Below are positions 36,926 to 53,831 of a DNA stretch of 64,000 nt, piece after piece; positions within the stretch are counted from its first letter, which is position 1; each line of letters starts with the position of its first letter. The stretch comes from Balneola sp. GTDB taxonomy: Bacteria; Bacteroidota; Rhodothermia; Balneolales; Balneolaceae. Location of the stretch: assembly GCA_028284195.1 (NCBI GenBank), contig JANQSE010000011.1, forward strand, positions 18 to 64,017. Reading direction: 5' to 3'. The position numbers were made by a program, and so were the translations under genes. The notes below the pieces were generated by a model. That model did not search any database and was not told the DNA's origin. It worked only from the letters and a program-made list of their open reading frames with translations.

Positions 36926-39900
36926 TTATTTTTTCAGAGCATCTTCTACCAAAGCTTCCTGTTCGGCATCGTGAACTTTTTTCTGCCCGGCTGCTGTGGA
37001 AGCAGATGCCTGCCGGCCTGCATACGTTAGTTTTTGTCCTCCATTCAGTTTATCCATAATGCGGGGAGCAACAAAAGTCCACGCTCCCATATTCTTGGGT
37101 TCTTCCTGGCACCAAACTATTTCAGTAACATTTTTTAGTTTTTTTAATAAATCAGAAACGTCCTTATCCGGGAAAGGATAGAATTGTTCAAGCCTTGCAA
37201 CTGCTACATCTTTGATGTCATTTTCTGCGCGGTATTTAATAAGATCATAATAAACCTTACCCGAACATATAACCAATCGTTTTGGGTTGGTTACCTCATC
37301 ATCTGCAATAAACGGCTGGAATTTCCCTTCAGCCAGATCAGTAGTATTTGAAGTTGCCATAGGGTGGCGCAGCAGGCTTTTTGGTGTCATTAGAATTACA
37401 GGTTTTTTTACGTCCTGTAGTGTTTGCTTCCTTAGCATATGGAAATACTGCGCGGGAGTAGTCAGATTCATTACCTGCATATTATCTTCAGCACAAAGCT
37501 GCAGGAAGCGTTCTAGCCGGGCCGAAGAATGTTCGGGGCCTTGTCCTTCATACCCATGGGGCAGGTTCAGAATCAGAGAAGTTGTTTGTCTCCACTTTGC
37601 TTCGCTCGAAGAAAGGAACTGATCGATAATGATCTGAGCCCCGTTCACAAAATCACCAAACTGTGCTTCCCAGATGACTAAAGCATCTTTTTGTTGAGCA
37701 CTGTATCCAAACTCAAAGCCCATAGCGGCATATTCGCTCAACAAACTGTTATGAATATGAAAATATCCTTGATCCCCAGACAGGTGGTTCAGCGGAGTAA
37801 ATGTCTGATTGGTTTCCGTGCCATGTAATACAGCGTGGCGGTGAGAAAAGGTGCCTCGTTCCACATCCTGTCCGGTAACTCTAACCGTGGTTCCTGACTT
37901 CAGTAACGAACCAAATGCTAAGGCTTCCGCAAACCCCCAGTCTATTTTGTTTTCATTTTTATCTACAACTTCTGCCCGTTTGGCAAGTAAACGGAGAAGC
38001 TTGGGATTGGCATCAAAGTCTTTTGGAACGGTATTAATTTTTACGGCGATGTCTTTCAACTCATCCGCAGGGTAGGTAGTATCAGGAAACTCCACCCGGT
38101 TTTTCTGGATGGTTTCTGATCGGTCGATCAGATCGTCGGTTATATCGACATTGGGTGACTGTTTAGCGTCTTCAAATGCTTCTTGCAGAAGCTTGTCGAA
38201 CTCATCGAAAATTTGCTGAGTTTCTTCTTCTGATAACTCCCCGTTTTTAACAAGGTACTGCGTGTACAGATCCCTTACCGGTGGATGATTGTTAATTTCT
38301 TTGTACATGTCTGGCTGAGTGAAAGCCGGCTCATCGCCTTCATTATGGCCATGCTTACGATAACCGATTAAGTCAATGATTACATCTTTGCCAAACTTCT
38401 GGCGATACTCAACAGCCATCTGTATAGCGTGAACTGCAGCCTCAGGCTGGTCTCCGTTTACATGAAAAATTGGAGCCAGAATCATCTTTGCCAGGTCTGA
38501 AGCATACTCAGTAGATCGCCCGTCTTTTGGAAGGGTGGTAAAGCCAATCTGGTTGTTGATGATAATATGAACTGTTCCTCCTGTCTTGTATCCCTCAAGC
38601 TGAGACATGTTCAATGTTTCAGGAACAACGCCCTGACCGGCGAATGCCGCATCGCCATGCATTAAAACCGGAAGAATTTTCTTTTCAGCCTCATCGCTTT
38701 CGTGGTGATCCTGCATTGCGCGAACAGCACCTTCTACCACAGGATTAACTGCTTCCAAATGGCTCGGGTTTGGCATTAACTCAAGCTCTACTTCTTTATC
38801 ATCTGGTGTCTTATGCACTCCTTTTGTTCCCAGATGATATTTTACATCACCTGAGCCCTGAATGGATTCGGGGTCAATATTCCCTTCAAATTCGGCGAAT
38901 ACCTTGCGGTATGGTTTGTTCATAATATTTACAAGCATATTCAACCGTCCGCGATGGGCCATGCCAAAGAAGGCTTTTTCTATTCCATTATCAGCTGCTT
39001 TGTTAAGCATAAAATGGATCATCGGAATAAGTGAATCAGCACCTTCCAGAGAAAAGCGCTTATGCCCGATATACTTTTTGTGCAAGAACTCCTCGAAGGC
39101 CATTGCCTGATTCAATTTATGCAGAATCTGCTTTTTGTCATCTTTAGAAAGATCTGCTTGATTAGCTGTAGATTCCATCGCATTGCGTAACCAGCGGCGT
39201 TCTTCCAAATCAAGCAGGTGCATATAGTCAGCACCAATATTTCCGCAGTAAGTGTCTCTCAGCAGTTTAACAATTTCACGAAGCGGTGCTTTTTCTTTAC
39301 CCCCAAAACCGCCGCAATAGAATTCACGATCTAAATCCCAAAGAGAAAGGCCGTAGTATTCGAGATCGAGCTCAGGAACATGTTTAGGATCTTTTCCAAG
39401 TGGATCCAGGTCAGCAAGAACATGCCCTCGCATCCGGTACATGTTGATTAACCTCCACACACCAATGGCCCGTTTGTCATATTGCAGAGAATCAGATTTT
39501 CCACCAAATGGGCCTGAATAGGTATCTGTTGAATAAGGAATGGGCTCGTAAAGAATTTCCAGGTCAGCAAAAATATCTTCGTAGAACGTTTCCTGGCCGG
39601 TTAAAAGGTCGTTGACTTTTTTAAGGAACGAACCCGATTCAGCTCCTTGAATTACCCGGTGGTCATAAGTACAGGTTATCGTCATTACCTTACTGATGCC
39701 CAACTGGTTCAAAATCTCTTTCGACATGGACAAGTATTCTGCCGGATAATCAATAGCTCCGGTTGCGATAATTGCACCCTGTCCCTGCATTAATCGTGGC
39801 ACCGAAGAAACCGTACCAATAGTACCCGGGTTTGTTATGCTGATGGTGGTACCCTGATAATCGTCAATTTCAAGTTTGCCATTCCTGGCTTTATCGATGA

Positions 39901-40549
39901 GCTCTGCATAGGCATGCAGGAACTCTTTAAAGTTCATTTTGTCAACGCCCTTCAGATTCGGTACAACAAGGTTTCTGCTGCCGTCTTTGTTTGGCAGGTC
40001 GATTGCTATTCCCAGGTTAACCTGATTTGAAACAACTTTGAAATGATTATTGCCATCAAAATGATAAGCGTTGTTTAATGAAGGAAATTCTTTTAAAGCT
40101 TTAATGATTGCCCAGGCAATGAAATGAGTAAACGAAGCTTTTGGTTCGTTTCGCTGCAGAAGATGTGTGTTGATGATGGTACGATCTTCAATCAGCATTT
40201 TAACCGGAAGTACTCTCAAAGAAGTAGCAGTAGGTACTTCGAGGCTTTGATCCATATTCTCAACAATCTTGGTAGCAACGCCTTTTATTTTTTCCAGCTC
40301 TGCATTTTTTGGAACCACAGAACTTACTTCCGGCTTTTTCTTTGGGGCAGGTTTGTCTTCTTTAGCTGAAACAGTTGGGGCAACCTGTTCTGCTGCTACG
40401 GTTTCGCCGTTGGTTGAAGCTTTCCCATCGTGTTCATCAAAAAAATTACGCCAATGTTGGGGGACAGAGCTTGGGTTTTCCTGATACTGATTGTAGAGCT
40501 CTTCAACAAGTGCTGAATTGGGCCCGAAAACTTCTTCAAGAGATTTCAA
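36926..40549 (-). CDS. sucA: Multifunctional 2-oxoglutarate dehydrogenase/decarboxylase (Kgd-type E2-E1 fusion)
   Basis: GPNSALVEELY; E2 domain TITNPGTIG...TYDHRVIQG; E1 GMAHRGRLN, ThDP motif HGDAAFAGQG, HSSARLERFLQ. Confidence 0.95.
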   Translation of the reverse strand: MKSLEEVFGPNSALVEELYNQYQENPSSVPQHWRNFFDEHDGKASTNGETVAAEQVAPTVSAKEDKPAPKKKPEVSSVVPKNAELEKIKGVATKIVENMDQSLEVPTATSLRVLPVKMLIEDRTIINTHLLQRNEPKASFTHFIAWAIIKALKEFPSLNNAYHFDGNNHFKVVSNQVNLGIAIDLPNKDGSRNLVVPNLKGVDKMNFKEFLHAYAELIDKARNGKLEIDDYQGTTISITNPGTIGTVSSVPRLMQGQGAIIATGAIDYPAEYLSMSKEILNQLGISKVMTITCTYDHRVIQGAESGSFLKKVNDLLTGQETFYEDIFADLEILYEPIPYSTDTYSGPFGGKSDSLQYDKRAIGVWRLINMYRMRGHVLADLDPLGKDPKHVPELDLEYYGLSLWDLDREFYCGGFGGKEKAPLREIVKLLRDTYCGNIGADYMHLLDLEERRWLRNAMESTANQADLSKDDKKQILHKLNQAMAFEEFLHKKYIGHKRFSLEGADSLIPMIHFMLNKAADNGIEKAFFGMAHRGRLNMLVNIMNKPYRKVFAEFEGNIDPESIQGSGDVKYHLGTKGVHKTPDDKEVELELMPNPSHLEAVNPVVEGAVRAMQDHHESDEAEKKILPVLMHGDAAFAGQGVVPETLNMSQLEGYKTGGTVHIIINNQIGFTTLPKDGRSTEYASDLAKMILAPIFHVNGDQPEAAVHAIQMAVEYRQKFGKDVIIDLIGYRKHGHNEGDEPAFTQPDMYKEINNHPPVRDLYTQYLVKNGELSEEETQQIFDEFDKLLQEAFEDAKQSPNVDITDDLIDRSETIQKNRVEFPDTTYPADELKDIAVKINTVPKDFDANPKLLRLLAKRAEVVDKNENKIDWGFAEALAFGSLLKSGTTVRVTGQDVERGTFSHRHAVLHGTETNQTFTPLNHLSGDQGYFHIHNSLLSEYAAMGFEFGYSAQQKDALVIWEAQFGDFVNGAQIIIDQFLSSSEAKWRQTTSLILNLPHGYEGQGPEHSSARLERFLQLCAEDNMQVMNLTTPAQYFHMLRKQTLQDVKKPVILMTPKSLLRHPMATSNTTDLAEGKFQPFIADDEVTNPKRLVICSGKVYYDLIKYRAENDIKDVAVARLEQFYPFPDKDVSDLLKKLKNVTEIVWCQEEPKNMGAWTFVAPRIMDKLNGGQKLTYAGRQASASTAAGQKKVHDAEQEALVEDALKK

Positions 40550-40797: not shown

Positions 40798-40907
40798 AAA
40801 AAAAAATAGCCCCACAGAAGCAGGGCATAAGGATACTCGTATGAGCAGAGCCGACAGAGTCTAAAAGACATCTTTGATGTGATAAGACTCTTTTCGAGAT
40901 GAATAAA
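40798..40907 (-). ncRNA. tracrRNA
   Basis: 18-nt anti-repeat at 40887-40904 (ATTCATCTCGAAAAGAGT on the minus strand), then nexus-like hairpin (GUCU-UUU-AGAC), terminator GCCCUGCUUCUGUGGGGC plus U9; TATACT -10-like element at 40910-40915 (minus). Confidence 0.88.
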
Positions 40908-40943
40908 TGAGTATAACCATCTCATTCTTAAAATCAAATTGTC

Positions 40944-43900
40944 ATGAAGAAAATACTGGGAGTAGATTTAGGAGTAGCATCCATAGGTTGGAGCTTACTT
41001 GAAAAAGGAGAAGAAACGGGAAGAATAATTAAAAGCGGTTCAAGGATTTTTCAATCTAATGAACAACGGGCAGACTCAGCACCGGGGAAATCAGCCAAAT
41101 CGGATTGGGGTACAAAACGATCTGTTCGTAGGCAAAGAGATAGAAGAACACGCAGAAAGCAAAAATTATACAATCTGTTATTTAAAAATGGATTGGCACC
41201 TAAAAAAGAACTTCGAGATGAGTGGATAAAACTAAATCCATATTTACTTCGTGCTAAGGGATTGGATGAAGAATTGAGCTTAATTGAATTGGGGAGAGCT
41301 TTTTATCATTTAAATCAACATAGAGGATATAAGAGTAATCGAAAAGACGGAGAAGAAAAAGATGGGCCTGTAAGCAAGGGTATATCAAAAGTTGAAAACT
41401 TAATGAAAGAATATGAAGCCAGAACCTTTGGCGAATATTGCTTTAAGATATTTGAAAACCATTTTGAAGAAAGTAAAAAACCAGTCGATGACGATTGGAG
41501 AATACGAGACAACTATACTCATCGTAGTATGTTTATAGATGAATTCGAAAAGATTTGGGGTGCCCAACAGAAGTTTAATCCAGCTAAACTCAATAATGAT
41601 TTAAAGAAAGAAGTTTTCGATACCATTTTTTTCCAAAGAAAAATGAAAAGTCAAGCTCATCTGATTGGGAAATGTCCTCTTGAAAAAAACAAGAAACGAA
41701 TTCCCAAAGCACATTTACTTTTTCAGGAATTCAGAATTCAAAAAAATCTAAATAACCTTTCTTTGGCCGATGAAAACGGTATTCCAATATCAATGAGTTT
41801 GGAAAACAAGAAAAGTCTCTTTGAATTAATGAACAAGAAAGGTAAAGTTACCTTCACGGCACTTAAAACTGTTTTGGTTAAAGAGGGATTGATTGCAAAT
41901 AAGAACAACGTAGTTTTTAATCTTGAAGCTGGTGGTCGAAAAGAAATTGAAGGGAACAGAACTAATCAAAAGTTGTCAGATGACAAGGCTTTTGGAGAAG
42001 ACTGGTATAAATTAGATAGAGAATTACAGGATTACATTGTGTATGTGCTCATTCACTTTGACGATCCGAACAAGGTTAAAGAGAAAGCTTTGAACGAATG
42101 GAACCGGAACGAAGACCAGGCAATCTATCTCAGTCATCTTGTTCTTGAGAAGAACTATGCGGGTTTTTCTGAGAAAGCCATTAAAAAGCTACTTCCGTTT
42201 TTAAAAAAGGGAATGGAAGAAAGTACAGCTATCGAAGCTGTAGGATATGACTTATTTGATCAAAAGCAGGGTACTCATGATAAGCTTCTTATGCCTCCCG
42301 ATATTAGAAACTCAGTAGTATATCATGCACTTATTGAATTGCGAAAGGTAGTCAACGGGATCATTAGAGAATATGGAATGCCAGACATTATTCGAGTAGA
42401 GCTTACTAGGGATATAAAAGCAGGGTACGAACGGCGGCAGAAGATGACTGAAAAAATGCGGGAGTTAGAGAAGAGAAATGACAAAGCTCGTAAAGAATTA
42501 AAGAAGGCTCCTTTTAACAGGGAAGAACCTACTTATAGTGATATTCTTTGGTACAATCTCTGGCAAGAATGTGATAAAATATGCCCGTATACTGAAAAAT
42601 CTATTCCTGCGTCAGCATTTAATTCAGGAGAATTTCAGGTAGAGCATATCATTCCTTTTAGCCGCTCATTGGATGATTCTTATGCCAATAAAACGTTGTG
42701 TGAAGCCGATTTTAACAGAAAAAAGGGAAATAAAACACCTTGGGAATGTGTACAAGGGCGTTTAATTAGTGAAGATGACCTGCTACAACGAAAACGCCGT
42801 TTGCCCTGGAATAAACAGAAAAAGTTTATCCAGAAAACTACTGAAGAAAACTCTTTTATAAACCGACAGTTAAGTGATACCCGATACATTAGCAGAGAGG
42901 CTAGTTCGTATTTAAAGCAACTTGCATGTGAACGTGTGGAAGTAGTGAAAGGGCAAACGACTTCCCTTCTTCGCCACGTTTGGGGATTGAATGGAGTGTT
43001 AAATAAAGAAGACGAAGAAATGAAAACTCGGGATGATCATCGCCACCACGCTGTTGATGCTATTGTTGTAGCATTGACCTCCCGATCCATTCTAAAGCGT
43101 TTAAGCGATGAAAACAAAAAATTAAGTTTTGATGAATGGAAAAGCATAGAAGAAACAGGCAAGGAGCAATATGAGGAATTGAAACGCAGAGCAGAAGGAA
43201 GGCTTTGGCTAAGCTATCCCTGGCTAAGCTTTAGACAGGATGTGGAGCGAAGCATTAATGATATTACTGTTTCTCATAGGGTAAACAGGAAAGTCTCTGG
43301 AGCTTTGCACGAAGAAACATTTTACGGACCTACGGATGAACCTGCTCCTAAAAATAAAGAAATGATGGTTGTTCGAAAACCTGTACACAAGCTTAAAATA
43401 ACTAAACGCACAAATGATTTAGAAGCTATACGAGATGAAGGAATCAGAAAAATTGTAGACGAAGAGATAAAGAAGAGAGTAGGTACTGGACTTAGTTTAG
43501 AAAATGCGGTAAAGAGCCTGGAAAACGATCCCCCATATATTATTTCACCCAAAGCAAAAGTACCCATTCGTAAAGTGCGCTTATTAATGGAGAAACAACC
43601 TGAAATAATGCATGCTTTCGAAGATGAAACAGGTAAGGTATTTAAGCATGCTTTGTATGGTAGTAACCATCATATAGCTATATATGAAACCTTAGATAAG
43701 AAGGGGCAGCGAAAACAAGTTGGTTTTGTGGTTCCAACTCTAGAAGCTGCCCGAAGAATAAAAGACGGAGAGCCTATCGTTGATAAAACCTATCTACCAA
43801 ATCATACTTTTCTTTTTTCACTTTCTATAAATGATATGATTATAAATCATGAAGACGAAGAAATTTATAGAGTACAGAAAATCACTTCAGATACTCAAAT

Positions 43901-44033
43901 GACTTTTCGTAAAAATGAAGTTTCCTTAAAGGGATCAGTAGATCCAGGTGTATTAAGAAAAATGCCAGGAACTCTAAAAGCAACAAAAATTAAAATTTCT
44001 CCTATTGGAGAAGTTTTCCCGGCCAATGATTAA
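40944..44033 (+). CDS. cas9: Type II-C CRISPR-associated endonuclease Cas9 (compact, 1029 aa)
   Basis: RuvC-I ILGVDLGVASIG; Arg-rich bridge helix; RuvC-II IRVELTRD; HNH QVEHIIPFSRSLDDSYANKTLC...N; RuvC-III RHHAVDA. Confidence 0.97.
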   Translation: MKKILGVDLGVASIGWSLLEKGEETGRIIKSGSRIFQSNEQRADSAPGKSAKSDWGTKRSVRRQRDRRTRRKQKLYNLLFKNGLAPKKELRDEWIKLNPYLLRAKGLDEELSLIELGRAFYHLNQHRGYKSNRKDGEEKDGPVSKGISKVENLMKEYEARTFGEYCFKIFENHFEESKKPVDDDWRIRDNYTHRSMFIDEFEKIWGAQQKFNPAKLNNDLKKEVFDTIFFQRKMKSQAHLIGKCPLEKNKKRIPKAHLLFQEFRIQKNLNNLSLADENGIPISMSLENKKSLFELMNKKGKVTFTALKTVLVKEGLIANKNNVVFNLEAGGRKEIEGNRTNQKLSDDKAFGEDWYKLDRELQDYIVYVLIHFDDPNKVKEKALNEWNRNEDQAIYLSHLVLEKNYAGFSEKAIKKLLPFLKKGMEESTAIEAVGYDLFDQKQGTHDKLLMPPDIRNSVVYHALIELRKVVNGIIREYGMPDIIRVELTRDIKAGYERRQKMTEKMRELEKRNDKARKELKKAPFNREEPTYSDILWYNLWQECDKICPYTEKSIPASAFNSGEFQVEHIIPFSRSLDDSYANKTLCEADFNRKKGNKTPWECVQGRLISEDDLLQRKRRLPWNKQKKFIQKTTEENSFINRQLSDTRYISREASSYLKQLACERVEVVKGQTTSLLRHVWGLNGVLNKEDEEMKTRDDHRHHAVDAIVVALTSRSILKRLSDENKKLSFDEWKSIEETGKEQYEELKRRAEGRLWLSYPWLSFRQDVERSINDITVSHRVNRKVSGALHEETFYGPTDEPAPKNKEMMVVRKPVHKLKITKRTNDLEAIRDEGIRKIVDEEIKKRVGTGLSLENAVKSLENDPPYIISPKAKVPIRKVRLLMEKQPEIMHAFEDETGKVFKHALYGSNHHIAIYETLDKKGQRKQVGFVVPTLEAARRIKDGEPIVDKTYLPNHTFLFSLSINDMIINHEDEEIYRVQKITSDTQMTFRKNEVSLKGSVDPGVLRKMPGTLKATKIKISPIGEVFPAND

Positions 44034-44922
44034 ACGCACGGTTGAAATATCGAGTGGTCCTGTTCATCTTACTATAAAGCATAAACAAATGCTGTTAAAG
44101 AAAGGGGAGGATGTACATTCCATTCCGGTAGAAGATCTAGGATTACTGGTGCTTTCTCATCCTGCCATCAGCTATACCCATCAGCTGCTATATGAGTTGT
44201 TAGAGCAAAATGTAGCTGTGCTTTTTTGTAACCGACAGCATATGCCCGAAGGACTATTGCTTCCTTTCGAGGACAACCAACTTCATCAAGCTCGTTTACA
44301 AATACAGGCAGAGGCAACTAAACCACTAAAAAAGAGACTATGGCAACAAGTTGTAAAGCAGAAAATTAAAGCTCAGTCAACAGTTCTTAAAGAAAAACAT
44401 GGGAATGATGATGGCTTAAAACTATTAATTCCAAAAGTTAAATCAGGTGATCCATCAAATGTGGAGGCAAGAGCTGCAAAACAATATTGGAAGAGTTTAT
44501 TTAAAGACAGCGAATTTCGTCGCAAATATGACTCTCCCGATCTGAATGCATTATTAAATTATGGATATGCGGTGATTCGGGCTGCGGTGGCGAGAAGTTT
44601 AACAGCGGCAGGACTTCATCCATCTATGGGGATTCATCATCATAACCAATACAACCCATATTGTTTAGCCGATGATATGATGGAGCCTTTACGGCCATTG
44701 GTGGATGCTGAGGTATATGATTTGTATGAACACCATAGCACGTTGAAAATTGAAGTAAACAAAAAAACAAAAAAGCCGTTACTCCAGCTTCTTACGAAAG
44801 AGGTTCGAATTAACGGGATGAAGTATCCTTTGTTAGAGAGCCTTCATTTGATGGCTTCATCTCTGGCTCAATGCTATGCCAGAGAAATAAAAAGAATTGA
44901 ATTTCCAACTCAGCCCGGTTAA
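44026..44922 (+). CDS. cas1: CRISPR-associated endonuclease Cas1 (type II)
   Basis: Probable start MIKRTVEIS overlapping the cas9 stop; VEARAAKQYW; LNALLNYGYAVIRA; LHPSMGIHH; LADDMMEPLRP. Confidence 0.96.
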   Translation: MIKRTVEISSGPVHLTIKHKQMLLKKGEDVHSIPVEDLGLLVLSHPAISYTHQLLYELLEQNVAVLFCNRQHMPEGLLLPFEDNQLHQARLQIQAEATKPLKKRLWQQVVKQKIKAQSTVLKEKHGNDDGLKLLIPKVKSGDPSNVEARAAKQYWKSLFKDSEFRRKYDSPDLNALLNYGYAVIRAAVARSLTAAGLHPSMGIHHHNQYNPYCLADDMMEPLRPLVDAEVYDLYEHHSTLKIEVNKKTKKPLLQLLTKEVRINGMKYPLLESLHLMASSLAQCYAREIKRIEFPTQPG

Positions 44923-44924
44923 GC

Positions 44925-45269
44925 ATGAGTAAACGAATGATTACATTTGGAGGGATGAAGACGATGTGGATGATAGTAATGTTTGATTTACCTGTTGATA
45001 CAAAAGCTGCGGTTAAAGAAGCTAATGATTTTAGAATACGGATAAAGAAAGATGGGTTTATGATGATGCAATTGTCTGTATATACCCGACACTGTCCTAG
45101 CCGAGAGAATGCAGATGTACATGAGCGTAGAGTAAAAAAAATCTTGCCCCCTGATGGAGAAGTACGCATTTTGCGCATTACTGATAAGCAGTTCGGAAAT
45201 ATGAAAATATTTCACGGAAAGCGAAGAAAACCCACCGAGAATGCCCCGAAGCAATTACAAATGTTTTAG
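44925..45269 (+). CDS. cas2: CRISPR-associated endoribonuclease Cas2
   Basis: MWMIVMFDLPV; GFMMMQLSVYTR; GEVRILRITDKQF; PKQLQMF. Confidence 0.95.
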   Translation: MSKRMITFGGMKTMWMIVMFDLPVDTKAAVKEANDFRIRIKKDGFMMMQLSVYTRHCPSRENADVHERRVKKILPPDGEVRILRITDKQFGNMKIFHGKRRKPTENAPKQLQMF

Positions 45270-45291
45270 TTTTTGTAGAGTTGGAACTGAA

Positions 45292-45316
45292 CAAGTTCTT
45301 GGGAGCCAAAAACTTG
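45292..45316. terminator. Hairpin in the cas2-array leader (probable terminator)
   Basis: Minus strand CAAGUUUUUGG-CUC-CCAAGAACUUG, 11-bp stem with one G-U pair. Confidence 0.5.
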
Positions 45317-45326
45317 AACAGAACCT

Positions 45327-46219
45327 AATCTAATTCATCTCGAAAAGAGTTCAAACCACAGCAATCCCGTGTTGTAGTTGTCTTCAATTCGGAATCTAAT
45401 TCATCTCGAAAAGAGTTCAAACCACAGCATGTTATCATTTTAGTCCCGTCATTTTAATAATCTAATTCATCTCGAAAAGAGTTCAAACCACAGCATGAGA
45501 TATTACCTGCTTTAATATTATTAGAATCTAATTCATCTCGAAAAGAGTTCAAACCACAGCGAAGTCTGACTGAGAGGTTGCGACTTCAGGAATCTAATTC
45601 ATCTCGAAAAGAGTTCAAACCACAGCCCCTTGTTAGATATTTCTATGATTGTCATAAATCTAATTCATCTCGAAAAGAGTTCAAACCACAGCTGATAAGA
45701 ACTCTGTTTCTATTACCATGACAATCTAATTCATCTCGAAAAGAGTTCAAACCACAGCATCGGCTTCGTTTATTTCATCAATGAGAAAATCTAATTCATC
45801 TCGAAAAGAGTTCAAACCACAGCGATTTCACACAGTTGATCAATGGAGGGTTGAATCTAATTCATCTCGAAAAGAGTTCAAACCACAGCCATCTCCAAAT
45901 AATCTTTAAGCTGCACTAAAATCTAATTCATCTCGAAAAGAGTTCAAACCACAGCAGATAGATTCTACTGGATTAAAGGGTTATAAATCTAATTCATCTC
46001 GAAAAGAGTTCAAACCACAGCAGAGACGGGTCATGCGATTACAGAGAATGAAATCTAATTCATCTCGAAAAGAGTTCAAACCACAGCGAAGTATTATGAT
46101 TAGTCCCATCGTCAATGAATCTAATTCATCTTGATAAGAGTTCAAGCCCCAACACTGTATTGTATTTACTAAATAATAGCGTTAACCTAATTCATCTTAA
46201 TAAGAGATCAAATCCCAAC
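45327..46219 (-). CRISPR. Type II-C CRISPR array: 14 repeats (12 identical, 2 variant) and 13 spacers
   Basis: 36-bp repeat AATCTAATTCATCTCGAAAAGAGTTCAAACCACAGC starting at 45327, 45393, 45459, 45525, 45591, 45657, 45723, 45788, 45854, 45920, 45986, 46052; variants at 46118 and 46184; spacers 30 bp (one 29 bp); crRNA strand deduced from tracr complementarity. Confidence 0.98.
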
Positions 46220-46274
46220 CCCAACCTCCTGTCCAAGTGAATTGGTTAAAATTTAAATAAACATCCATTCTCCT

Positions 46275-47648
46275 ATGGCTCATAAAATTCTCAGGAAAGA
46301 TGATTATCTGCCCAAATCAAGTCCGGTTGGGCCATTCATATTCCTCATGCTTCTGTCCGCAATTCTCATGCTTGTTGACATTGAGAGGATGGTATTTTGG
46401 GGAGTCCTGGCTGGAGTATCACCTTTTTTCGGTCTCTGGTTTCATGCGAGGTGCACTAAAAAGGCATACGCTCGCTGGGCCCAAGATATATCGAACCTTA
46501 TAAGTAGCAAGCAGGCCATTAACTACAATGATCTGTTCTATTGGACCGATTTAACCGTATGGCACAAAATAGATTTTAACGTCGCCAGCGATAAGTTTCT
46601 AAAAGAAGTTTTCGCCCGGACAGAAAAGAACTGGGAACTCGATGGCCTCTACACTGCTTTCCTCAAGCGCTATTCTATAGAGGAGCTGACTAAGATCATA
46701 GCTTCAAACCAGAAACTCAGGTATGAAGATCAGCAAACCATGCTTAAATATGTTGAACGGATCAAGGACGGGGTCCCCACCTCTTTCTGGGACCTAACTC
46801 TAGAAGAAATCAACGGAGTGGACTATTATGAAGCTGAATTAGAGCGAGCCTTGCGCGAAGATGACATTCCTGCCCTAGAAAAAGCACTTCAAAAAATAGA
46901 TGAATTCAGTTTCAACGACTATCCATACGAAGAAGCATCGACGCAAGCCTTGCTCACTATCGTAGAAAAAGCACTGACTCAAGAGGGTGCCTTTAATGGA
47001 GCTTATCATCTCATTGGACGCGATAGTACCTTAAGCGATTTGGCCCACGCAGTAGCAAAAAACCCCAACCTCACCTTACAAGAAAAAGCAGGATTCCTGA
47101 TGCCTAGGATCGAAGATGAGGGCTATGACTTGAATCTTATTGATGAAAACCAGCCTGAGTATGCTTTCATTGAGATGGCACGAAAACAAGCCCGCAGGGA
47201 AGTAAAAGCAAAAGAAGCTTTAAAACAAAAAGAAAGCGAACTCATAGCTGTAATGGATAATGTTCGAGCGAAGCGCGAAGATCGAATCCGTGCGACAAAA
47301 GCCTTCGCAACGATACATTCAAAGTGGGCTATCAGCGTGTGTTCTGGTACTCAAGCCGCATGGCATTGTCCCGAATGCGCCATCAAGGGAACCTATTCGA
47401 TGAAGCGTGACATGCGAGACGTTTACGAAAAGCAGCTTGAAGCAGGAGCTATGCTGCGAGGAGAAGAAATCTGCGGAACCTGCAACATATCTTTTACCAC
47501 CGCGCAAATATACCGAGGTGAGCTAGATGCTGTATTTATCGATATAAGCTGCAAAAACTGCCACTATGATTGGACCGGGCCTGTTGAATCTTTTATCGAC
47601 AGTAATTGCAAGCAATGTAACGCTCCTTTTATTTCCAGTCATCTATAA
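46275..47648 (+). CDS. Hypothetical membrane protein: 2 TM, coiled coil and four CxxC motifs
   Basis: 457-aa ORF; two N-terminal hydrophobic segments; CPEC, CGTC, CKNC, CKQC at the C-terminus. Confidence 0.8.
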   Translation: MAHKILRKDDYLPKSSPVGPFIFLMLLSAILMLVDIERMVFWGVLAGVSPFFGLWFHARCTKKAYARWAQDISNLISSKQAINYNDLFYWTDLTVWHKIDFNVASDKFLKEVFARTEKNWELDGLYTAFLKRYSIEELTKIIASNQKLRYEDQQTMLKYVERIKDGVPTSFWDLTLEEINGVDYYEAELERALREDDIPALEKALQKIDEFSFNDYPYEEASTQALLTIVEKALTQEGAFNGAYHLIGRDSTLSDLAHAVAKNPNLTLQEKAGFLMPRIEDEGYDLNLIDENQPEYAFIEMARKQARREVKAKEALKQKESELIAVMDNVRAKREDRIRATKAFATIHSKWAISVCSGTQAAWHCPECAIKGTYSMKRDMRDVYEKQLEAGAMLRGEEICGTCNISFTTAQIYRGELDAVFIDISCKNCHYDWTGPVESFIDSNCKQCNAPFISSHL

Positions 47649-47734
47649 ATAATATCTTCCTAATTAAATAATATCTTTCTAATTTATTCAGAGCCTCGAG
47701 TCACACACACTCTTAACTTCAGCCATCTTTAAAC

Positions 47735-48232
47735 ATGTCCGATTCATTTATAGTCATTGTTATCATCAGTATCGTTGCGATTGTCTTTATACTCAGCTCT
47801 ATTAAGAATAAAAAGATCAATGAACTCCCTTTCGTCATGCGACTGCATAAGATTAAAGAAGAGATGGAAAGCAAGTGTTCTGAGTGTAAGCAAGAAATGG
47901 ATCAATTAAAAAATTCAGATCCGAATAAAGTAGAAGTCATTCGTTATAAATTAGACGCATACAACGCAGAGAAAGCAAAGTATGTTAGAATGGTCGATGC
48001 TGCTAAAAGAATTGCTAAAAAGATCGGCTCAGAATCTGATACCCAAGCATACAATGCAAAACTTGAAGGAGTCCTAAAAGCCAGTGGACGAGACACACTC
48101 GCAAGCCTTTCTCAGTTACAAGCCATATTTGCCGTGCGTGGAGAATCGCCTTTCAACCAAACGGTGGAGCAGTTAATTCAAGCTTACAAAAGTAATAAAA
48201 CGATTACGCCTGAATTATTTCTGGATACTTAG
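47735..48232 (+). CDS. Hypothetical signal-anchored coiled-coil protein
   Basis: 165-aa ORF; N-terminal FIVIVIISIVAIVFIL; Lys/Glu-rich helical body. Confidence 0.75.
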   Translation: MSDSFIVIVIISIVAIVFILSSIKNKKINELPFVMRLHKIKEEMESKCSECKQEMDQLKNSDPNKVEVIRYKLDAYNAEKAKYVRMVDAAKRIAKKIGSESDTQAYNAKLEGVLKASGRDTLASLSQLQAIFAVRGESPFNQTVEQLIQAYKSNKTITPELFLDT

Positions 48233-48284
48233 TCAAAAGCAGCCATTCTCGATGGCTTACTCCGATGTCATTACATAGACGCCA

Positions 48285-48487
48285 TCCCAATCTTCATCGG
48301 CTGGATATGTTATTTTATCTTTAACAAATCATTTTCCATCTTTTTTTAAAAATGCTACTTTGCTCGAATCTTTTTTAATTTCCATTTCTTTTATTTGATC
48401 GATATCAAATGAAAGAAGAGACTTTACCTTGGGAGATGTATTTTTAGTTTTTTTAAAAGCTAAATCATATAAGAATAAGAAGTATAA
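48285..48487 (-). pseudogene. Decayed DUF4340-like gene fragment
   Basis: LYFLFLYD...KSLLSFDIDQIKEMEIKKDSSKVAFLKKDGK*FVKDKITYPADED; TGA where DUF4340-type proteins have W; no start codon. Confidence 0.55.
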
Positions 48488-48501
48488 CCTAACCTCGCAT
48501 C

Positions 48502-49980
48502 ATGAAGTACATCCAAGTATCCGGTAACCAACGATCTCCTGCTTATTGTTCAGACAATGCCTGCCCTTGTCCTGGTCTCGGAGCGGAAATCCCTCACGGG
48601 CAGGGATATATGTATATATCCAAGGATGTAGCTGACTTTCGCCAAGATGCTCTCTCTGAGAGTGAAGCCGAGCGTAAAATTAAAAGCCTGGCGACATCGG
48701 GGAATTTCACCATGTTCGACGCGAGTGTATTTTCTCCCACTTTGATGTGTGAGCTAGGGGCAAAGAAGAGACAGCTCGATTTGGAAATGGCTGCGAGTGA
48801 TGCCAAGCACTGGTGGAATACGGGTGAAGTGCCTTGCCGTCCAACATCCATTAAGGGTGAAGAGGATAGCTCTATCGGTAGTGATGAAGACGCCAGCAAA
48901 CTCTTGAGCGATGCAGATGATGTTGTAGCAGACCTCAATGCGCTTCTAGGGAAAGAGGGCGATCTGGATACGGATGCTTTGCAAGCCATCAACGATAGGA
49001 TGGATACGCTTGTAAAAGATGCCGGGGCATATGTAGCTAACGATTCGCTTTCGGCAGCATTTAAAGAGATCTTAGAACAATTTCGCGAGACAGAAAGTGG
49101 GATCAATGAATTATTCGCATCTTCAGATTGGGAAGATAACCATTATAACTTAGTGGATCTTTACACTGAAAAATTGGGGCTCCTTGCTGAGTATGCTGAA
49201 GAGGTCTTGGAGGGTGAAGAATTGGAGATGGCACTAACCCGTTACCATAACATCCTAACGGAATTTAAAAATAAATTAGAAGTGCTGGAGAAGGATATTG
49301 AATCCGATTTAGCAGACGCGAAACGTGATGAGTCAAAGAATGTTTCATCAGGAGATCCTAAACCTAAATCAAATAAAACGGTTGTTTGGGGGGGTGTCCT
49401 TTTATTAATCATAGCTGTCTGGTTCCTCTACAATAGAGCTGAAAATAATGCTAAAGAGTATGAAGCTCTTTTAAAAGAAATGAATGAGACTGAGCGTAGC
49501 ATTGAGAGCGACACGGAACAGAATGCTCAGACCATAGAGTTTCTTGGGTATTGGAATTGGTATATTGAGAATCCTCAAACTCAAGGGGTCTCGGTTGGTT
49601 TTCAGAATAACTCGACGAAGCCAGTGAAGGCTTTTAAAGGAACGATTGCGAGTTTAGATGACTTTGGAGATCCTACAGATAATCGGATCGATTTTCTATT
49701 CGACTCAAAGTCTATTTATCGAGGCGTGGACGAGTCTGGTGCCTTTTATAGTACTTTGCACTATGTGATTCCTCCCGGTGAAAAATTGTTTATAACCCAA
49801 ATAGCCTCAGGTGCTGGGGTAGTTGGCTACGTTTCTTCAGAATTTATAGACGTATTTTATGACTACTATATAAAGGTGGGTGATGGCTTTGAAGTGACGA
49901 GTTATAATTATTTAAATAATATTACTGCTAGCCCTAAAGATATAGAATTAAGGATAGAAAAAGTTTTGTACGATGAGTAG
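48502..49980 (+). CDS. Hypothetical bitopic membrane protein with Cys-rich N-terminal domain
   Basis: 492-aa ORF; CSDNACPC...LMCE...HWWNTGEVPC; acidic helical linker; TM VVWGGVLLLIIAVWFLY; coiled coil; beta-rich C-terminal domain. Confidence 0.8.
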   Translation: MKYIQVSGNQRSPAYCSDNACPCPGLGAEIPHGQGYMYISKDVADFRQDALSESEAERKIKSLATSGNFTMFDASVFSPTLMCELGAKKRQLDLEMAASDAKHWWNTGEVPCRPTSIKGEEDSSIGSDEDASKLLSDADDVVADLNALLGKEGDLDTDALQAINDRMDTLVKDAGAYVANDSLSAAFKEILEQFRETESGINELFASSDWEDNHYNLVDLYTEKLGLLAEYAEEVLEGEELEMALTRYHNILTEFKNKLEVLEKDIESDLADAKRDESKNVSSGDPKPKSNKTVVWGGVLLLIIAVWFLYNRAENNAKEYEALLKEMNETERSIESDTEQNAQTIEFLGYWNWYIENPQTQGVSVGFQNNSTKPVKAFKGTIASLDDFGDPTDNRIDFLFDSKSIYRGVDESGAFYSTLHYVIPPGEKLFITQIASGAGVVGYVSSEFIDVFYDYYIKVGDGFEVTSYNYLNNITASPKDIELRIEKVLYDE

Positions 49981-50042
49981 CCGAGGCTCTCTAGGAGTTA
50001 AAGTGCTGATACCGGTCAGGCAAATGCCGGGCTTACCCATCC

Positions 50043-50256
50043 CAGTTGAAACAATGTTCTCAACCGGTCTGAAATAAGATCTTCGCCGAGGGGGGGAGAA
50101 AAAATCATAGGCTAGGGTTTCATAGTCGGGAAACTATATCACATCGGCAGACTCAACAAAGAAGCTTAAAGCCGAATAAAGTTGCTGGGTGGTTTGGAGC
50201 GAAGCCGTGATCACCAGCACGGACTGGCCTGCCTCGACGTGCCGCTGATAATACCA
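50043..50256 (-). pseudogene. mfd: Decayed N-terminal fragment of transcription-repair coupling factor
   Basis: RHVEAGQSVLVITASLQTTQQLYSALSFFV...I*FPDYETLAYDFFSPP, frameshift in the G7 run, then EDLISDRLRTLFQL; matches the Mfd motif ETLPYDxFSPHQDIISxRLxTLYQL. Confidence 0.8.
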
Positions 50257-50260
50257 GGAG

Positions 50261-50428
50261 AAATTACCTATTTTTCGATTTTCGATAAAGCCATTAAAGT
50301 CAATCTTGCCACTGGCATTGGTTGCAACTCTGATTTCGCCCGGTGTGCAGGCTGAAAGGGCTCGTGTTGCGGTAGCGGCCAATTTTTATTCTGTGATGAA
50401 AGAGTTGTCGGATTCTTTTGAAATCTAA
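50261..50428 (+). pseudogene. modA: 5' fragment of molybdate ABC substrate-binding protein, truncated by a CRISPR repeat
   Basis: Signal peptide KPLKSILPLALVATLISPGVQA, then ERARVAVAANFYSVMKELSDSFE (ModA VAVAANF motif); no ATG; stop TAA supplied by the repeat at 50426-50428. Confidence 0.75.
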
Positions 50429-50457
50429 TTCATCTTGATAAGAGATCAAATCCCAAC
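50422..50457 (-). CRISPR. Isolated CRISPR repeat (variant type)
   Basis: AATCTAATTCATCTTGATAAGAGATCAAATCCCAAC; 34/36 to the repeat at 46184, 33/36 to 46118, 30/36 to consensus. Confidence 0.93.
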
Positions 50458-50623
50458 GGAACGAGAATCCTTACTGGTAACAGCTTTGTGGTTACATCAA
50501 AATCTTTCATACAACTTAGCTGAGAATTGGAGTGCTTTACTTCGAAAAATTGGTATGGGTTGTTTTAAAAAATCTTGAATAGATTTGTTAGCAAGGATAT
50601 CTCTGATAAACACACAAAACATT

Positions 50624-51523
50624 ATGAAACACATCCACAAAATATTCTTCATCCTCTTACTTACAACAACTACCATGGTACAAGCTCAGAACAAAAAACT
50701 AAAGATATACATCTCTGCCGATATGGAGGGGGTTGTCGGGGCAGTTACCGGCGACCAACTCGGTCCCGGAGGCTTTGAATACGAACGCTTTCGCAAGTTT
50801 ATGACTGCAGAAGTAAATGCCTGCATAGCAGCAGCCCGCGAAGCCGGTGCAGACGAGATTCTTGTCAGCGATTCGCACGGCAACGGGCAGAATATCCTCA
50901 TCGAAAAATTGCCTGATGATGTGATGATCGTAAGATCGTGGCCACGCGTACTGGGCATGATGGAAGGCATTGACGATTCTTTTGACGGAGCCATCTTCCT
51001 GGGCTACCACGCCAGTACCAACAGCAAAGAAGGTGTAAGGGCGCATACCATGTCCAGCGCCAACATCACCTCGCTTAAAATCAACGATATGGTAATGCCC
51101 GAAGCAGGCATCAATGCACTGATTGCCGGACATTTTAATGTGCCCGTTATTCTGGTTACAGGAGACGATATTGCCGTGAAAGAAACACAAGACCTGATCG
51201 GGGATGTAGAAGGCGCTGTTGTGAAATGGGCGAACAGCTTCCACTCAGCAAAAACCCTTACCCCCAATGCCGCTTATGAGGTAATCGGCAAAAAAACCAA
51301 AGCGGCCATAAAGAGAATCAAAGAGTTTAAACCTTACCAATTAGAAGGCCCCTTAACCCTCGACCTCAGCCTGAAAAACTACCGCCCCGTAGAGCTTTTA
51401 CAGTATTATCCCGGAGCCGAGCGAATCGATTCGCATACCATCCGCTTCGTTGGTAAAGACATTGTTGAAATCTCCGTATTCCTTCGGTTTGTAACCGGGT
51501 ACAACATCACGCTGAAACCCTAA
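50624..51523 (+). CDS. dppA: M55 family D-aminopeptidase (DppA-like), secreted
   Basis: IYISADMEG; VSDSHGNG; LGYHA; AHTMSS; PEAGINA; VTGDD; signal peptide; probable start MKHIHK. Confidence 0.92.
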   Translation: MKHIHKIFFILLLTTTTMVQAQNKKLKIYISADMEGVVGAVTGDQLGPGGFEYERFRKFMTAEVNACIAAAREAGADEILVSDSHGNGQNILIEKLPDDVMIVRSWPRVLGMMEGIDDSFDGAIFLGYHASTNSKEGVRAHTMSSANITSLKINDMVMPEAGINALIAGHFNVPVILVTGDDIAVKETQDLIGDVEGAVVKWANSFHSAKTLTPNAAYEVIGKKTKAAIKRIKEFKPYQLEGPLTLDLSLKNYRPVELLQYYPGAERIDSHTIRFVGKDIVEISVFLRFVTGYNITLKP

Positions 51524-51528
51524 CCGGA

Positions 51529-52584
51529 ATGAAAAAAACCGCCATAGCCATTACCGGAGGTGAACTGCACACCAACTATGCAAAAACAACCCACGGCCTT
51601 ATCAGAGGTTCCGATCGTTTTGAGTTATTGGCCGTCATCGACCATAAGCATGCAGGAGCGGATGTGGGGGAGTTTCTGGACGGCAAAAACAGAAATATTC
51701 CAATAGTTGCTTCCGTAGATGAAGCAGTAAAACAATTTGCGCACATCGACTGCCTTATTGTAGGCGTGGCAACCAAAGGGGGTATTTTATCTGCTGATTT
51801 ATTAAATGCCATAAAAAAAGCCATTGCCTGTAAACTTAATATCGTTAACGGGTTGCACCATTTATTGTGCGAACAGCCGGATATTGTATCACTGGCACAG
51901 GAGTACGATGTAGAATTGATCGATATTCGAAAACCCAAACCAATCAAAGACCTGCATTTCTGGACGAGTGAAATATTTAATGTGGATGTTCCCGTAGTGG
52001 CGGTTTTGGGTATGGATTGTGCTTTGGGCAAGCGCACTGCCACCCGGCTGATGCTGGAAGCGTGCCGGGCAAAAGGCATAAAAGCAGAGATGATCTATAC
52101 CGGCCAGACCGGCTGGATGCAGGGCAGCAAATATGGCTTTATCTTCGACTCCACACTCAACGACTTCGTCTCGGGTGAACTGGAACATGCAATTGTTTCT
52201 TGTTGGAAAGAAGAAAAACCGGACGTGATATTTTTGGAAGGGCAGTCTGGCCTCCGAAACCCCAGCGGGCCTTGCGGCTTGGAAATGCTCATTTCCGGAA
52301 ATGCCAAAAAAGTGATTCTGGTATGTGCGCCCGGGAGACAATACTTTGACCATGAGCCTGCGTGGGGGGAGATCCCGTCCATCGAATCGGAAATGGAAAT
52401 CATTGCAACATTTGGCAGCGAGGTAGTCGGTCTGGCATTAAATACCGAAGGACTTTCTTCGGAAGAAGCAGAAGCCGTTCAGTCTGAGTTAGAAGCCTCA
52501 TTGAATATTCCGGTTGTTAACCCCATTAAGGAAGGAGTACAAAGATTAGTAACTGCGCTAAAAATGACCGTCCATGAAAATTAA
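51529..52584 (+). CDS. DUF1611 family protein (DgcN-like D-amino-acid N-acetyltransferase)
   Basis: YAKTTHGLIR; IVNGLH; GMDCALGKRT; TGQTG; FLEGQSGL. Confidence 0.85.
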   Translation: MKKTAIAITGGELHTNYAKTTHGLIRGSDRFELLAVIDHKHAGADVGEFLDGKNRNIPIVASVDEAVKQFAHIDCLIVGVATKGGILSADLLNAIKKAIACKLNIVNGLHHLLCEQPDIVSLAQEYDVELIDIRKPKPIKDLHFWTSEIFNVDVPVVAVLGMDCALGKRTATRLMLEACRAKGIKAEMIYTGQTGWMQGSKYGFIFDSTLNDFVSGELEHAIVSCWKEEKPDVIFLEGQSGLRNPSGPCGLEMLISGNAKKVILVCAPGRQYFDHEPAWGEIPSIESEMEIIATFGSEVVGLALNTEGLSSEEAEAVQSELEASLNIPVVNPIKEGVQRLVTALKMTVHEN

Positions 52585-53638
52585 AGCAATCGAGGCCTTT
52601 TCAAAAAATCTGGCGCTTACCAAACCGTACAGTATTGCTTACAAAACAGTTTCCGATGTTGAAAGTGCTTTTCTGTTCATCACGCTCGAAAATGGAATTA
52701 CCGGCATCGGAGCCGCCAACCCTGCTAAGGAAGTCGTCAACGAAACTCCTGCGGAAACCCTTGCAAATTGTCAGTCTGACTATTTCCAATCCTTTGTTGG
52801 CAAAGACATCCGGCATTTCCGAAAAATGATTCAGGATATTCATGTTGCTTTTCCCGACAAACCGGGTACACAGGCCGTTTGGGATATTGCCCTGCATGAT
52901 GCTTTTGCAAAATACCTTGGGATTCCTGTGGTAGCGATTTACGGGCAGCACATCAAATCGCTGCCCACATCGGTAACCATTGGTATTATGGGCGTGGAAG
53001 ACACACTAAAGGAAGCTGCTGAGTACAAAAAATCGGGCTTCAATGTGCTCAAAGTAAAGACCGGAGAATCTGTTGAGCTGGATATTGAACGAATCCTGAA
53101 ACTCCGCGAACAGCATAGCGGCATGGTTATCCGTGTAGATGCCAACCAGGGCTATGACCGGGAAGCATTGCTGCAATTTGTGAGTGCAGTAGAAAAAGCG
53201 GGTGTAGAATTGATAGAACAGCCCATTCCTGTGGGGAAAGAACAAGAACTAGCTGATGTTGACGAAAATATCAGGAAAATACTGGTGGCCGATGAAAGCC
53301 TGAAAAACAGCGCCAGTGCTATACAATATGCCGGTGTGCCTCAACTCTTCGGTATTTATAACATCAAACTGATGAAATGTGGTGGAATTTTCGGGGCGTT
53401 CGAAATAGCTGCTATTGCAAAAGCAGCCAATATTGACCTGTTTTGGGGCTGCAACGATGAAAGCATCGTGAGCATTACGGCGGCCTTGCATGCCGCGTTC
53501 GCTTGTCCCCATACCAAATACCTCGACCTCGATGGCAGCTTTGACCTGGCAGAAGATCTGGTAAGCGGGGGATTTACGCTAAAAGACGGAATACTAAGTA
53601 TCAACGAAAAACCGGGGTTCGGTTTTGAACTCAACTAA
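52574..53638 (+). CDS. Enolase-superfamily dipeptide epimerase (L-Ala-D/L-Glu epimerase / DgcA-like)
   Basis: DIALHD; TSVTIGI; KVK catalytic motif; RVDANQG; IEQP; ADES; NIKLMKCGG; LDLDG. Confidence 0.92.
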   Translation: MKIKAIEAFSKNLALTKPYSIAYKTVSDVESAFLFITLENGITGIGAANPAKEVVNETPAETLANCQSDYFQSFVGKDIRHFRKMIQDIHVAFPDKPGTQAVWDIALHDAFAKYLGIPVVAIYGQHIKSLPTSVTIGIMGVEDTLKEAAEYKKSGFNVLKVKTGESVELDIERILKLREQHSGMVIRVDANQGYDREALLQFVSAVEKAGVELIEQPIPVGKEQELADVDENIRKILVADESLKNSASAIQYAGVPQLFGIYNIKLMKCGGIFGAFEIAAIAKAANIDLFWGCNDESIVSITAALHAAFACPHTKYLDLDGSFDLAEDLVSGGFTLKDGILSINEKPGFGFELN

Positions 53639-53639
53639 A

Positions 53640-53831
53640 ATGAAGACTATGAAAAAAACATTGTTACTCGCTTCTTTTTTACTTCTCCTTACGGGGGTAG
53701 CAACTGCCCAAACAAGTATCGAGGCATTGCTGTCGGCTCCTTTTCCTTCCGGGCTTACCGGCTCGCCCGATAGCAAAGCGGATATCAGTATTGAGCAATT
53801 TTTAATCGATGAGTTGCAATCAGTAGATTAA
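53640..53831 (+). pseudogene. Truncated S9-family peptidase-like remnant
   Basis: Signal peptide then SIEALLSAPFPSGLTGSPD, typical of the secreted S9 peptidase N-terminus; ends after about 63 aa. Confidence 0.55.

Follow-up and report, generated by a model that had tools for sequence, protein, structure and literature searches.

Here, we propose that a type II-C CRISPR (clustered and regularly interspaced short palindromic repeats) array of Balneola sp. is a recombinant that ends in fossil repeats of a sister system, and that a block of genes came to lie inside this fossil tail through an ordinary event without Cas proteins. Our confidence in this reading as a whole is about even. The window analysed is a stretch of 64,000 nucleotides (nt; GenBank assembly GCA_028284195.1, contig JANQSE010000011.1, positions 18 to 64,017 of the forward strand), numbered from its first letter. 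In it, the last repeat contiguous with the array (R14) and a solitary repeat further downstream (R15) enclose 4202 base pairs (bp) with three intact open reading frames (ORF-A, ORF-B and ORF-C). The original prediction, made from the letters of the window, called this block a giant spacer and offered three routes to it: aberrant integration by Cas1-Cas2, repeat- or spacer-mediated recombination with foreign DNA, and use of the array as a landing pad from which gene cassettes can be excised. We weigh these routes against the history of the repeats themselves.

Two repeat families in one array

Metagenome contigs scanned for the core of the repeat yielded 12 sister loci, against which the repeats of the window can be read. 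R15 (AATCTAATTCATCTTGATAAGAGATCAAATCCCAAC) is letter-identical to the canonical repeat of six of them, all marine metagenome loci (L002, L003, L007, L010, L011 and L012), where it is present in 4 to 50 copies per locus; we call this repeat type B. The 12 main repeats of the window are of another type, A, near the repeats of L004/L005, L006, L009 and L013, and the two types differ at six positions (15, 18, 24, 30, 32 and 35). R13 is a mosaic that follows B at 15, 18, 32 and 35 and A at 24 and 30 and has a private G29, while R14 is type B with two private changes (C3 and A16). R15 is full-length and co-oriented with both, with three mismatches to R13 and 2/36 to R14; the 34/36 identity on which the original prediction was built is hence confirmed, and shuffled sequence gives an expectation of 0 for chance matches of this kind. 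Read away from the leader, the order is A twelve times, the mosaic R13, B with two changes (R14) and B (R15). One array thus holds two repeat families, each of them canonical elsewhere with its own effector module, and the variant repeats R13 to R15 are relics of the second family, not decay products of the first.

The genes tell a similar story. The locus belongs to type II-C by its cas9, with RuvC and HNH domains and a product of type II-C size (1029 amino acids, aa), by the adjoining cas1 and cas2 without csn2 or cas4, and by a predicted trans-activating CRISPR RNA (tracrRNA) on the minus strand, whose anti-repeat (TTATTCATCTCGAAAAGAGTCTTATCAC, at about 40888-40916) is complementary to the repeat of the CRISPR RNA (crRNA) and which ends in an intrinsic terminator (GCCCTGCTTCTGTGGGGC, then T9). 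This predicted tracrRNA diverges from cas9, and its strand implies minus-strand transcription of the crRNAs in the direction of cas2. At protein level, Cas9 of the window is 76% identical to that of the type A locus L013 and 47-50% identical to those of the type B loci, which carry an anti-repeat matching their own repeat upstream of cas9 (ATTCATCTTGATAAGAG, vs ATTCATCTCGAAAAGAG in the window). Cas1 and Cas2, on the other hand, are 83-91% identical to their counterparts in type A and type B sister loci alike, and in nucleotides cas1, cas2 and the leader stand about as near to one type as to the other (65-88%), whereas cas9 is clearly A-like (window vs L002, L003, L012, L013 and L005). Since the adaptation genes and leader are equally A- and B-like and cas9 is not, modules have been exchanged within this II-C family. 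A and B are therefore two co-evolved effector modules (Cas9, tracrRNA and repeat) set on a shared adaptation module, and the window has the A module with a B-type tail.

Which end of the array is old? The roughly 57 bp between cas2 and the first repeat are conserved in every locus that contains this end. In addition, L004 and L005 have 20 consecutive spacers in common, as far as the trailer, and their only differences lie at the cas2-proximal end. New spacers therefore enter beside cas2, and R13 to R15 are the oldest repeats. They also fit the resident machinery poorly: the predicted duplex with the anti-repeat of the resident tracrRNA has an energy of -35.4 kcal/mol for the type A repeat, and of -19.0, -19.6 and -21.9 kcal/mol for R13, R14 and R15, respectively, so that these relic repeats are probably poor substrates for the resident system. 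Type B relics at the oldest end, poorly paired with the resident tracrRNA, point to a recombinant array with a fossil B-type tail, and the passage from A over a mosaic to B is as expected for the old end of an array after a switch of repeat type by recombination.

The ends of the sister arrays offer a comparison. In four sister loci the array closes with a degenerate terminal repeat, directly followed by housekeeping genes, and within 3.7-8 kb past these four ends we found neither an orphan repeat nor a second array, including any orphan repeat enclosing cargo of the kind that the original prediction suggested mining other II-C loci for. The type B arrays have a common trailer sequence that is absent from the window, and on either side of R14 and R15 matches to leader or trailer sequences are at chance level only. 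Spacers, expected by the original prediction to be 30 bp, measure 29-30 nt. None of the 287 spacers of the window and the sister arrays matches the cargo, no spacer of the window is shared with a sister array, and the 30 nt after R14 have no exact 20-mer match in viral contigs. A regulatory, crRNA-like role for the pseudo-spacers beside R14 and R15 was considered and is unsupported, as they have no partial target in the window.

Repeats of this family are also seen outside complete loci. A solitary one lies at L006 1777-1812, a four-repeat orphan mini-array lies at L009 181-413, adjoining a (TTTTAGC)x4 tandem, and a 505-nt contig of the sequencing run that contains the organism carries a further repeat; none of the three has a cas gene or canonical leader in the sequence examined.

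The gene block and its junctions

As the original prediction held, the three genes between R14 and R15 are intact and of no known family: none has a match in Pfam, PHROGs, PADLOC or NCBIfam, and none falls into a phage, defence or mobility family. ORF-A has N-terminal membrane helices and C-terminal CxxC pairs (zinc-ribbon-like, by eye), and its sole match among 5.8 billion proteins is itself. ORF-B has an N-terminal membrane helix and a coiled-coil-like region, with no homologue in Pfam, phages, plasmids or viral contigs. The N-terminal 115 or so residues of ORF-C (window 48502-48850) are a widespread, uncharacterised Cys-rich domain (CSDxxCPC..GxGY..MCEQGAxKRxLD..AAADAKHWWxTGxVPLRPTP) with 539 cluster representatives at E<1e-3, elsewhere fused to ankyrin, HEAT, WD40-kinase, TPR or TM2 modules. 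AlphaFold models this domain with confidence (predicted local distance difference test score, pLDDT, 91), and the model has no fold match in PDB or BFVD; the domain has no Pfam family either. The remainder of ORF-C (an acidic coiled coil, a membrane helix and a C-terminal domain) is unique. One homologue of the domain has housekeeping genes as its genomic neighbours, and neither ORF-B nor ORF-C has a relative in phage or plasmid records or in viral contigs.

A foreign origin, which the original prediction assumed for fragments of this cargo, is not shown, and composition was rejected as evidence for it, given a guanine-cytosine (GC) content of 0.42 vs 0.40 for the rest of the window and a host-like codon usage. 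No transposase or integrase was found in or around the cargo (Pfam, PHROGs and NCBIfam), which is also devoid of replication and transfer genes, and around it there are no terminal inverted repeats, no att core, no target-site duplication and no bracketing direct repeats besides the CRISPR repeats. An inverted partial repeat within ORF-A (46819-46843, 21/25 to the reverse complement of R13) was set aside as chance, since 0.3 such hits are expected per window.

The right end of the block had been described as a modA fragment cut at the first base of R15, preceded by other remains of broken foreign genes. An open frame does run from about 50279 to that base. Its assignment to modA could not be confirmed, nor could the three broken fragments, so that the case for a foreign gene severed at that very base lacks a confirmed footing: the encoded 47-aa peptide and the other candidate fragments in 49981-50421 match nothing in Pfam (E up to 10), NCBIfam, a plasmid tblastn search or the search of 5.8 billion proteins, although an N-terminal piece of 47 aa is near the detection limit for similarity to ModA (a periplasmic-binding protein). 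Between 40000 and 52000 there is no Rfam family, the Moco riboswitch included.

The left end is untidy. Directly after R14, CCCAAC (46220-46225) duplicates the last 6 nt of that repeat, with a chance probability of about 2e-4, and could be repeat debris or a slipped repeat border. It opens a spacer-sized stretch of 30 nt (46220-46249), and exactly 30 nt past R14 the next bases (46250-46264) match the start of the repeat at 10/15 positions, a match with a background frequency of 0.0025 in the window. This arrangement hints, as a lead and not as proof, that the left edge reads R14, a normal spacer, the stump of a repeat and then cargo, in which case the break would lie inside the array and the insert would not abut R14. 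The original prediction had named, as the mark of an ordinary insertion splitting the array, a left end that begins with part of a spacer together with mobile-element ends and a target-site duplication; the possible spacer and stump are present, and the other two marks are not. On the opposite side, no repeat remnant lies at -66 or +66 from R15.

To the right of R15, homology with related Bacteroidales metagenome-assembled genomes (92% aa, 78% nt) begins at 50514, 56 bp past the repeat, with an operon for an M55 D-aminopeptidase, a DUF1611 protein and an MR_MLE protein. In the related genomes, the DNA upstream of the equivalent point varies, shared synteny starting only there, and no CRISPR repeat lies upstream of the operon. 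Six of them (L015, L016 and L018-L021) have a tyrosine integrase just upstream of it, with conjugative-transfer genes where the contig reaches far enough (L016), and two (L014 and L017) have other genes. The site upstream of the M55 operon is thus an integration hotspot, occupied in the window by the CRISPR locus and cargo. The M55 block itself (50514-53654) has a GC content of 0.46 vs 0.40 for the rest of the window; nowhere else does the window share nucleotide homology with the related genomes, and the genes flanking the block are different ones.

Are both junctions real, as the original prediction proposed to check from reads and coverage? The organism was found in one public sequencing run only (three run searches), which we examined as Logan contigs, a k=31 graph; a scan of genome contigs with Cas9 gave only a distant Elusimicrobia match, and an exact look-up of Cas2 gave none. 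One Logan contig of 9074 nt leads unbroken from cas9 over R12-R14 and all of the cargo as far as position 29 of R15 (with the identical array repeats collapsed, as expected at k=31), and so contains the left junction. Inside R15 the graph branches, because the sample has other B-like repeats: one is a 36-nt unitig of depth 63 that differs by one change, and there are two contigs, one of depth 4 and one of depth 32, the latter with a single B-like repeat. The assembled contig might thus have been misjoined through a 36-nt repeat present elsewhere in the metagenome, and the branching exactly at R15, the alternative 31-mers at depths 4, 20 and 23.5, the abundant one-mismatch unitig and a depth of 54 on the cargo side vs 43 on the flank would all suit such an artefact. 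We nevertheless regard it as very improbable. The cargo-linked 31-mer (depth 55) has a single continuation, a 3673-nt contig that crosses the end of R15 without a branch and goes on into the M55 operon, and the other possible predecessors, at depths of 23.5 and 4, could not supply a flank with a depth of 43. Over the entire window, unitig depths go back and forth between 43 and 58, the left junction is inside one contig, and 36 nt is shorter than any modern read, so that the primary assembler could span the repeat. Hence the right junction is plausibly real. The cargo is single copy in the sample, at the depth of the chromosome. Neither the excised circle nor the collapsed allele envisaged by the original prediction is to be seen, there being no branch for either at the end of R14 or R15 at detectable depth, in contigs that drop rare variants.

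Table 1. Position of the CRISPR locus, gene block and neighbouring genes in the window
Feature	Position	Strand	Details
sucA	36926-40549	minus	
Predicted tracrRNA (type A)	40798-40916	minus	anti-repeat, stem-loops, terminator
cas9	40944-44033	+	1029 aa; RuvC_III, HNH_4 and Cas9_a domains
cas1	44005-44922	+	
cas2	44925-45269	+	
Leader	45270-45326	+	57 bp; motifs ..GGAACYGAACAAGTT..CTTGAACAGAACCT; conserved across sister loci
Array, 14 repeats in total	45327-46219	+	spacers 29-30 nt
Active part of array	45327-46087	+	12 identical copies of the type A repeat (AATCTAATTCATCTCGAAAAGAGTTCAAACCACAGC), separated by 11 spacers of 29-30 nt
R13	46118-46153	+	A/B mosaic repeat
R14	46184-46219	+	type B with two private changes; last repeat contiguous with array
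Left junction	46220-46274	+	CCCAAC duplication, spacer-sized stretch, possible repeat stump
ORF-A	46275-47648	+	457 aa
ORF-B	47735-48232	+	165 aa
ORF-C	48502-49980	+	492 aa
Segment without verifiable gene	49981-50421		441 bp; includes open frame 50279-50421
R15, solitary repeat	50422-50457	+	identical to canonical type B repeat
Unique sequence between R15 and start of M55 operon homology	50458-50513		56 bp
M55 D-aminopeptidase / DUF1611 / MR_MLE operon			M55 start codon 166 bp past R15

Elsewhere in the window, an ORF of 229 aa at 12876-13562 has a GC content of 0.295 (0.22 at third codon positions) among genes of about 0.40 and is possibly a recent acquisition, and no tRNA is present anywhere in the window. 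Of the sister loci, L003 and L008 lie on one 29-kb scaffold (TARA_R100000655_G_scaffold44302_3), each end of which falls within one and the same type B array. On the trailer side its flank runs colinear (94% nt) with a 1.45-Mb contig, Ga0207417_1000001, that starts and ends in the array and whose ends are bridged by L007, making it circular; the TARA scaffold is a small circle or else was wrongly scaffolded.

How the block may have come to lie between repeats

In light of the array being recombinant, how might genes have entered its tail? Under the reading that we favour, a once longer B-type tail would have been retained while recombination turned the effector module and the leader-proximal repeats into type A. 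The tail would then have been broken by an ordinary event without Cas proteins, either an insertion or the replacement of one or more repeat-spacer units, by way of illegitimate or homologous recombination and possibly with a mobile element whose hallmarks are now lost. R15, which would once have been contiguous with R14, would thereby have been left behind on its own, 166 bp upstream of the start codon of the M55 peptidase. Such an insertion would probably be tolerated, coming as it would at the array end among non-functional relics, with nothing functional lost. In type II-C arrays, as in Neisseria and Campylobacter, every crRNA can have its own promoter within the repeat; if this is true here, an insertion at the old end need not silence the active spacers, and this, along with the poor pairing of the relic repeats with the tracrRNA, is why we expect the insertion to have been tolerated.

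Several observations weigh against this proposal. As a single run holds the organism and no empty-site strain is available, we infer the former contiguity of R14 and R15. The transposase, integrase, terminal inverted repeats and target-site duplication that a mobile element might have left are all lacking in and around the cargo. Both flanking repeats are complete, an outcome that a random break gives in roughly 20-45% of cases. R15 is unmutated, vs 2-3 changes in R13 and R14, which fits a recent import slightly better than a long-resident relic. Finally, the CCCAAC duplication and the possible stump at 46250 are each weak evidence.

Known cases of DNA between CRISPR repeats resemble the locus in part. 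Canonical spacer integration in type II systems has the same topology, an insert between two copies of a duplicated repeat, but takes place at the leader-proximal repeat with inserts of about 30 bp, the type II integrases being directed to that repeat and measuring its length with a ruler, whereas the block in the window is leader-distal and 4202 bp long (PMC6895254). In Streptococcus pyogenes, PhiAP1.1-like prophages likewise place kilobases of DNA between II-A repeats, often at a degenerate terminal repeat, and their integration or excision can delete or move spacers; they do so with a phage integrase and an 8-bp core common to attP and the repeat, and a complete prophage splits the repeat (Varble et al., 10.1101/2020.10.09.333658). 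The window, in contrast, has no integrase or phage gene, both repeats at full length and 4.2 kb of orphan genes. Cyanobacterial Tn7-like transposons that target arrays also bring cargo into the array at a spacer and leave the flanking repeats intact, but with tnsABCD-type genes, defined ends and a fixed position in the spacer, none of which is seen in the window (PMC11837452). For a mobile element in the array, whether prophage, Tn7-like or insertion sequence (IS), the hallmarks are lacking: the insert has no integrase or transposase gene and no element ends. IS insertion is another known way in which kilobases come between CRISPR repeats. Racrs (RNA anti-CRISPRs), the solitary repeat units of mobile elements, share with R15 a lone CRISPR repeat beside non-CRISPR genes; they are borne by viruses or plasmids and mimic the active repeat of the host, whereas R15 is chromosomal and mimics a non-resident type (PMC10651486). 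We found no viral contig carrying the repeat, and with its type B sequence beside a resident type A effector module R15 was not accepted as a Racr. There is also a likeness to chimeric arrays formed by inter-array recombination, with mixed repeat types and spacer blocks and the older type at the trailer (PMC4524480; 10.1101/2022.05.19.492656). While those arrays exchange spacer-repeat units, the window mixes two co-evolved modules of Cas9, tracrRNA and repeat, and has a gene block in its older part. The locus is best grouped with interrupted and chimeric arrays, which are already known; within its own II-C family it is a little unusual.

One alternative is that the repeats themselves brought in foreign DNA by homologous recombination, either from a circle with one type B repeat in a single (Campbell-type) crossover, or from a linear, B-bounded fragment in a double crossover replacing array units. 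Either variant yields a full repeat, cargo and a full repeat, and the flanking repeats are indeed complete, co-oriented and of the same family. The private changes of R14 lie in positions 1-16, and from 17 on it equals R15, as a crossover in the 3' part would leave it; R15 matches the B repeat perfectly, as repeats of active foreign arrays do; further B-like repeats are present in the same sample; and inter-locus recombination has left clear signs in the family, being a known force in array evolution (PMC4524480). To this extent the second route of the original prediction stands: recombination involving repeats is plausible and fits the history of a chimeric locus. Its foreign donor is what is missing, as the repeat is on no viral contig, relatives of ORF-B and ORF-C are in no plasmid or phage record and ORF-A is without a relative. 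The cargo, moreover, has no replication or transfer gene, the graph of the run lacks any collapsed allele or circle junction, homologous recombination would have had a short substrate in 36 bp, and this import would not predict the duplicated repeat end and possible stump at the left edge. We consider import by the repeats unlikely. A stronger version would make CRISPR repeats a recombination site for capturing gene cassettes: DNA with a single B repeat would integrate into a B repeat of the array, via homologous recombination or the integrase acting at repeat borders, the tail would serve as a landing pad resembling an integron, and the solitary repeat of L006 and others like it would be footprints of this process. 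This we think improbable, and the excisable landing pad of the original prediction finds no backing in a graph without a branch for a collapsed allele or circle, in four sister array ends without an orphan repeat, or in viral contigs without the repeat.

It may also be that nothing was ever inserted. R15 could be all that is left of another type B array next to this one, or of a tail once much longer, after collapse by deletions between repeats, and the three genes would then always have stood between two arrays. A single repeat is a stable end state of repeat-mediated spacer loss (PMC11472070), the composition of the cargo is host-like, and the solitary repeats and mini-array of the family without cas genes or canonical leader (L006, L009 and the 505-nt contig) would be comparable remains. 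Yet no leader-like sequence lies on either side of R15, no second array or repeat lies within 3.7-8 kb of the four sister array ends, and the graded series from A through the mosaic to B over R12-R15 is more simply one array, so that we rate this history as unlikely to much the same degree as import by the repeats. For the giant spacer proper, in which Cas1-Cas2 would have integrated 4.2 kb at the trailer repeat and duplicated it, the topology is right, with a full direct repeat on either side at 34/36 identity and an open frame that reaches the first base of R15, and with Cas1 and Cas2 at 83-91% identity across A and B the resident integrase could plausibly recognise B repeats. The position and size of the block are another matter. 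It follows repeat 14 of 15 and is leader-distal, whereas the leader anchors type II integration (PMC6895254), and its 4202 bp are about 140 times the length of a spacer in a family whose 287 spacers are all 29-30 nt. The flanking repeats are of the non-resident type B, which speaks against their being copies of the resident repeat, the left edge has extra repeat-derived bases with a possible spacer and stump, and the 12 related loci offer no second example. Aberrant Cas1-Cas2 integration, the first route of the original prediction, is accordingly one that we hardly credit.

Meaning for type II-C arrays

What, then, does the locus say about this family? A CRISPR-linked route of gene acquisition would follow only if the repeats themselves had mediated the capture, and the present data hold no positive evidence of this. 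A practical point is that array-finding software would truncate this array and miss R15; the locus also has a bearing on how array history is read from repeat variants. What is worth keeping is the origin of the orphan repeat and of the repeats next to it, as fossils of a sister II-C system. If the fossil-tail reading is true, the locus would be a natural example of a II-C effector-module swap (cas9, tracrRNA and repeat) in which the adaptation module (cas1, cas2 and leader) was kept, and it would show that the trailer of an array can retain fossil repeats from the system that came before and accommodate kilobases of unrelated genes.

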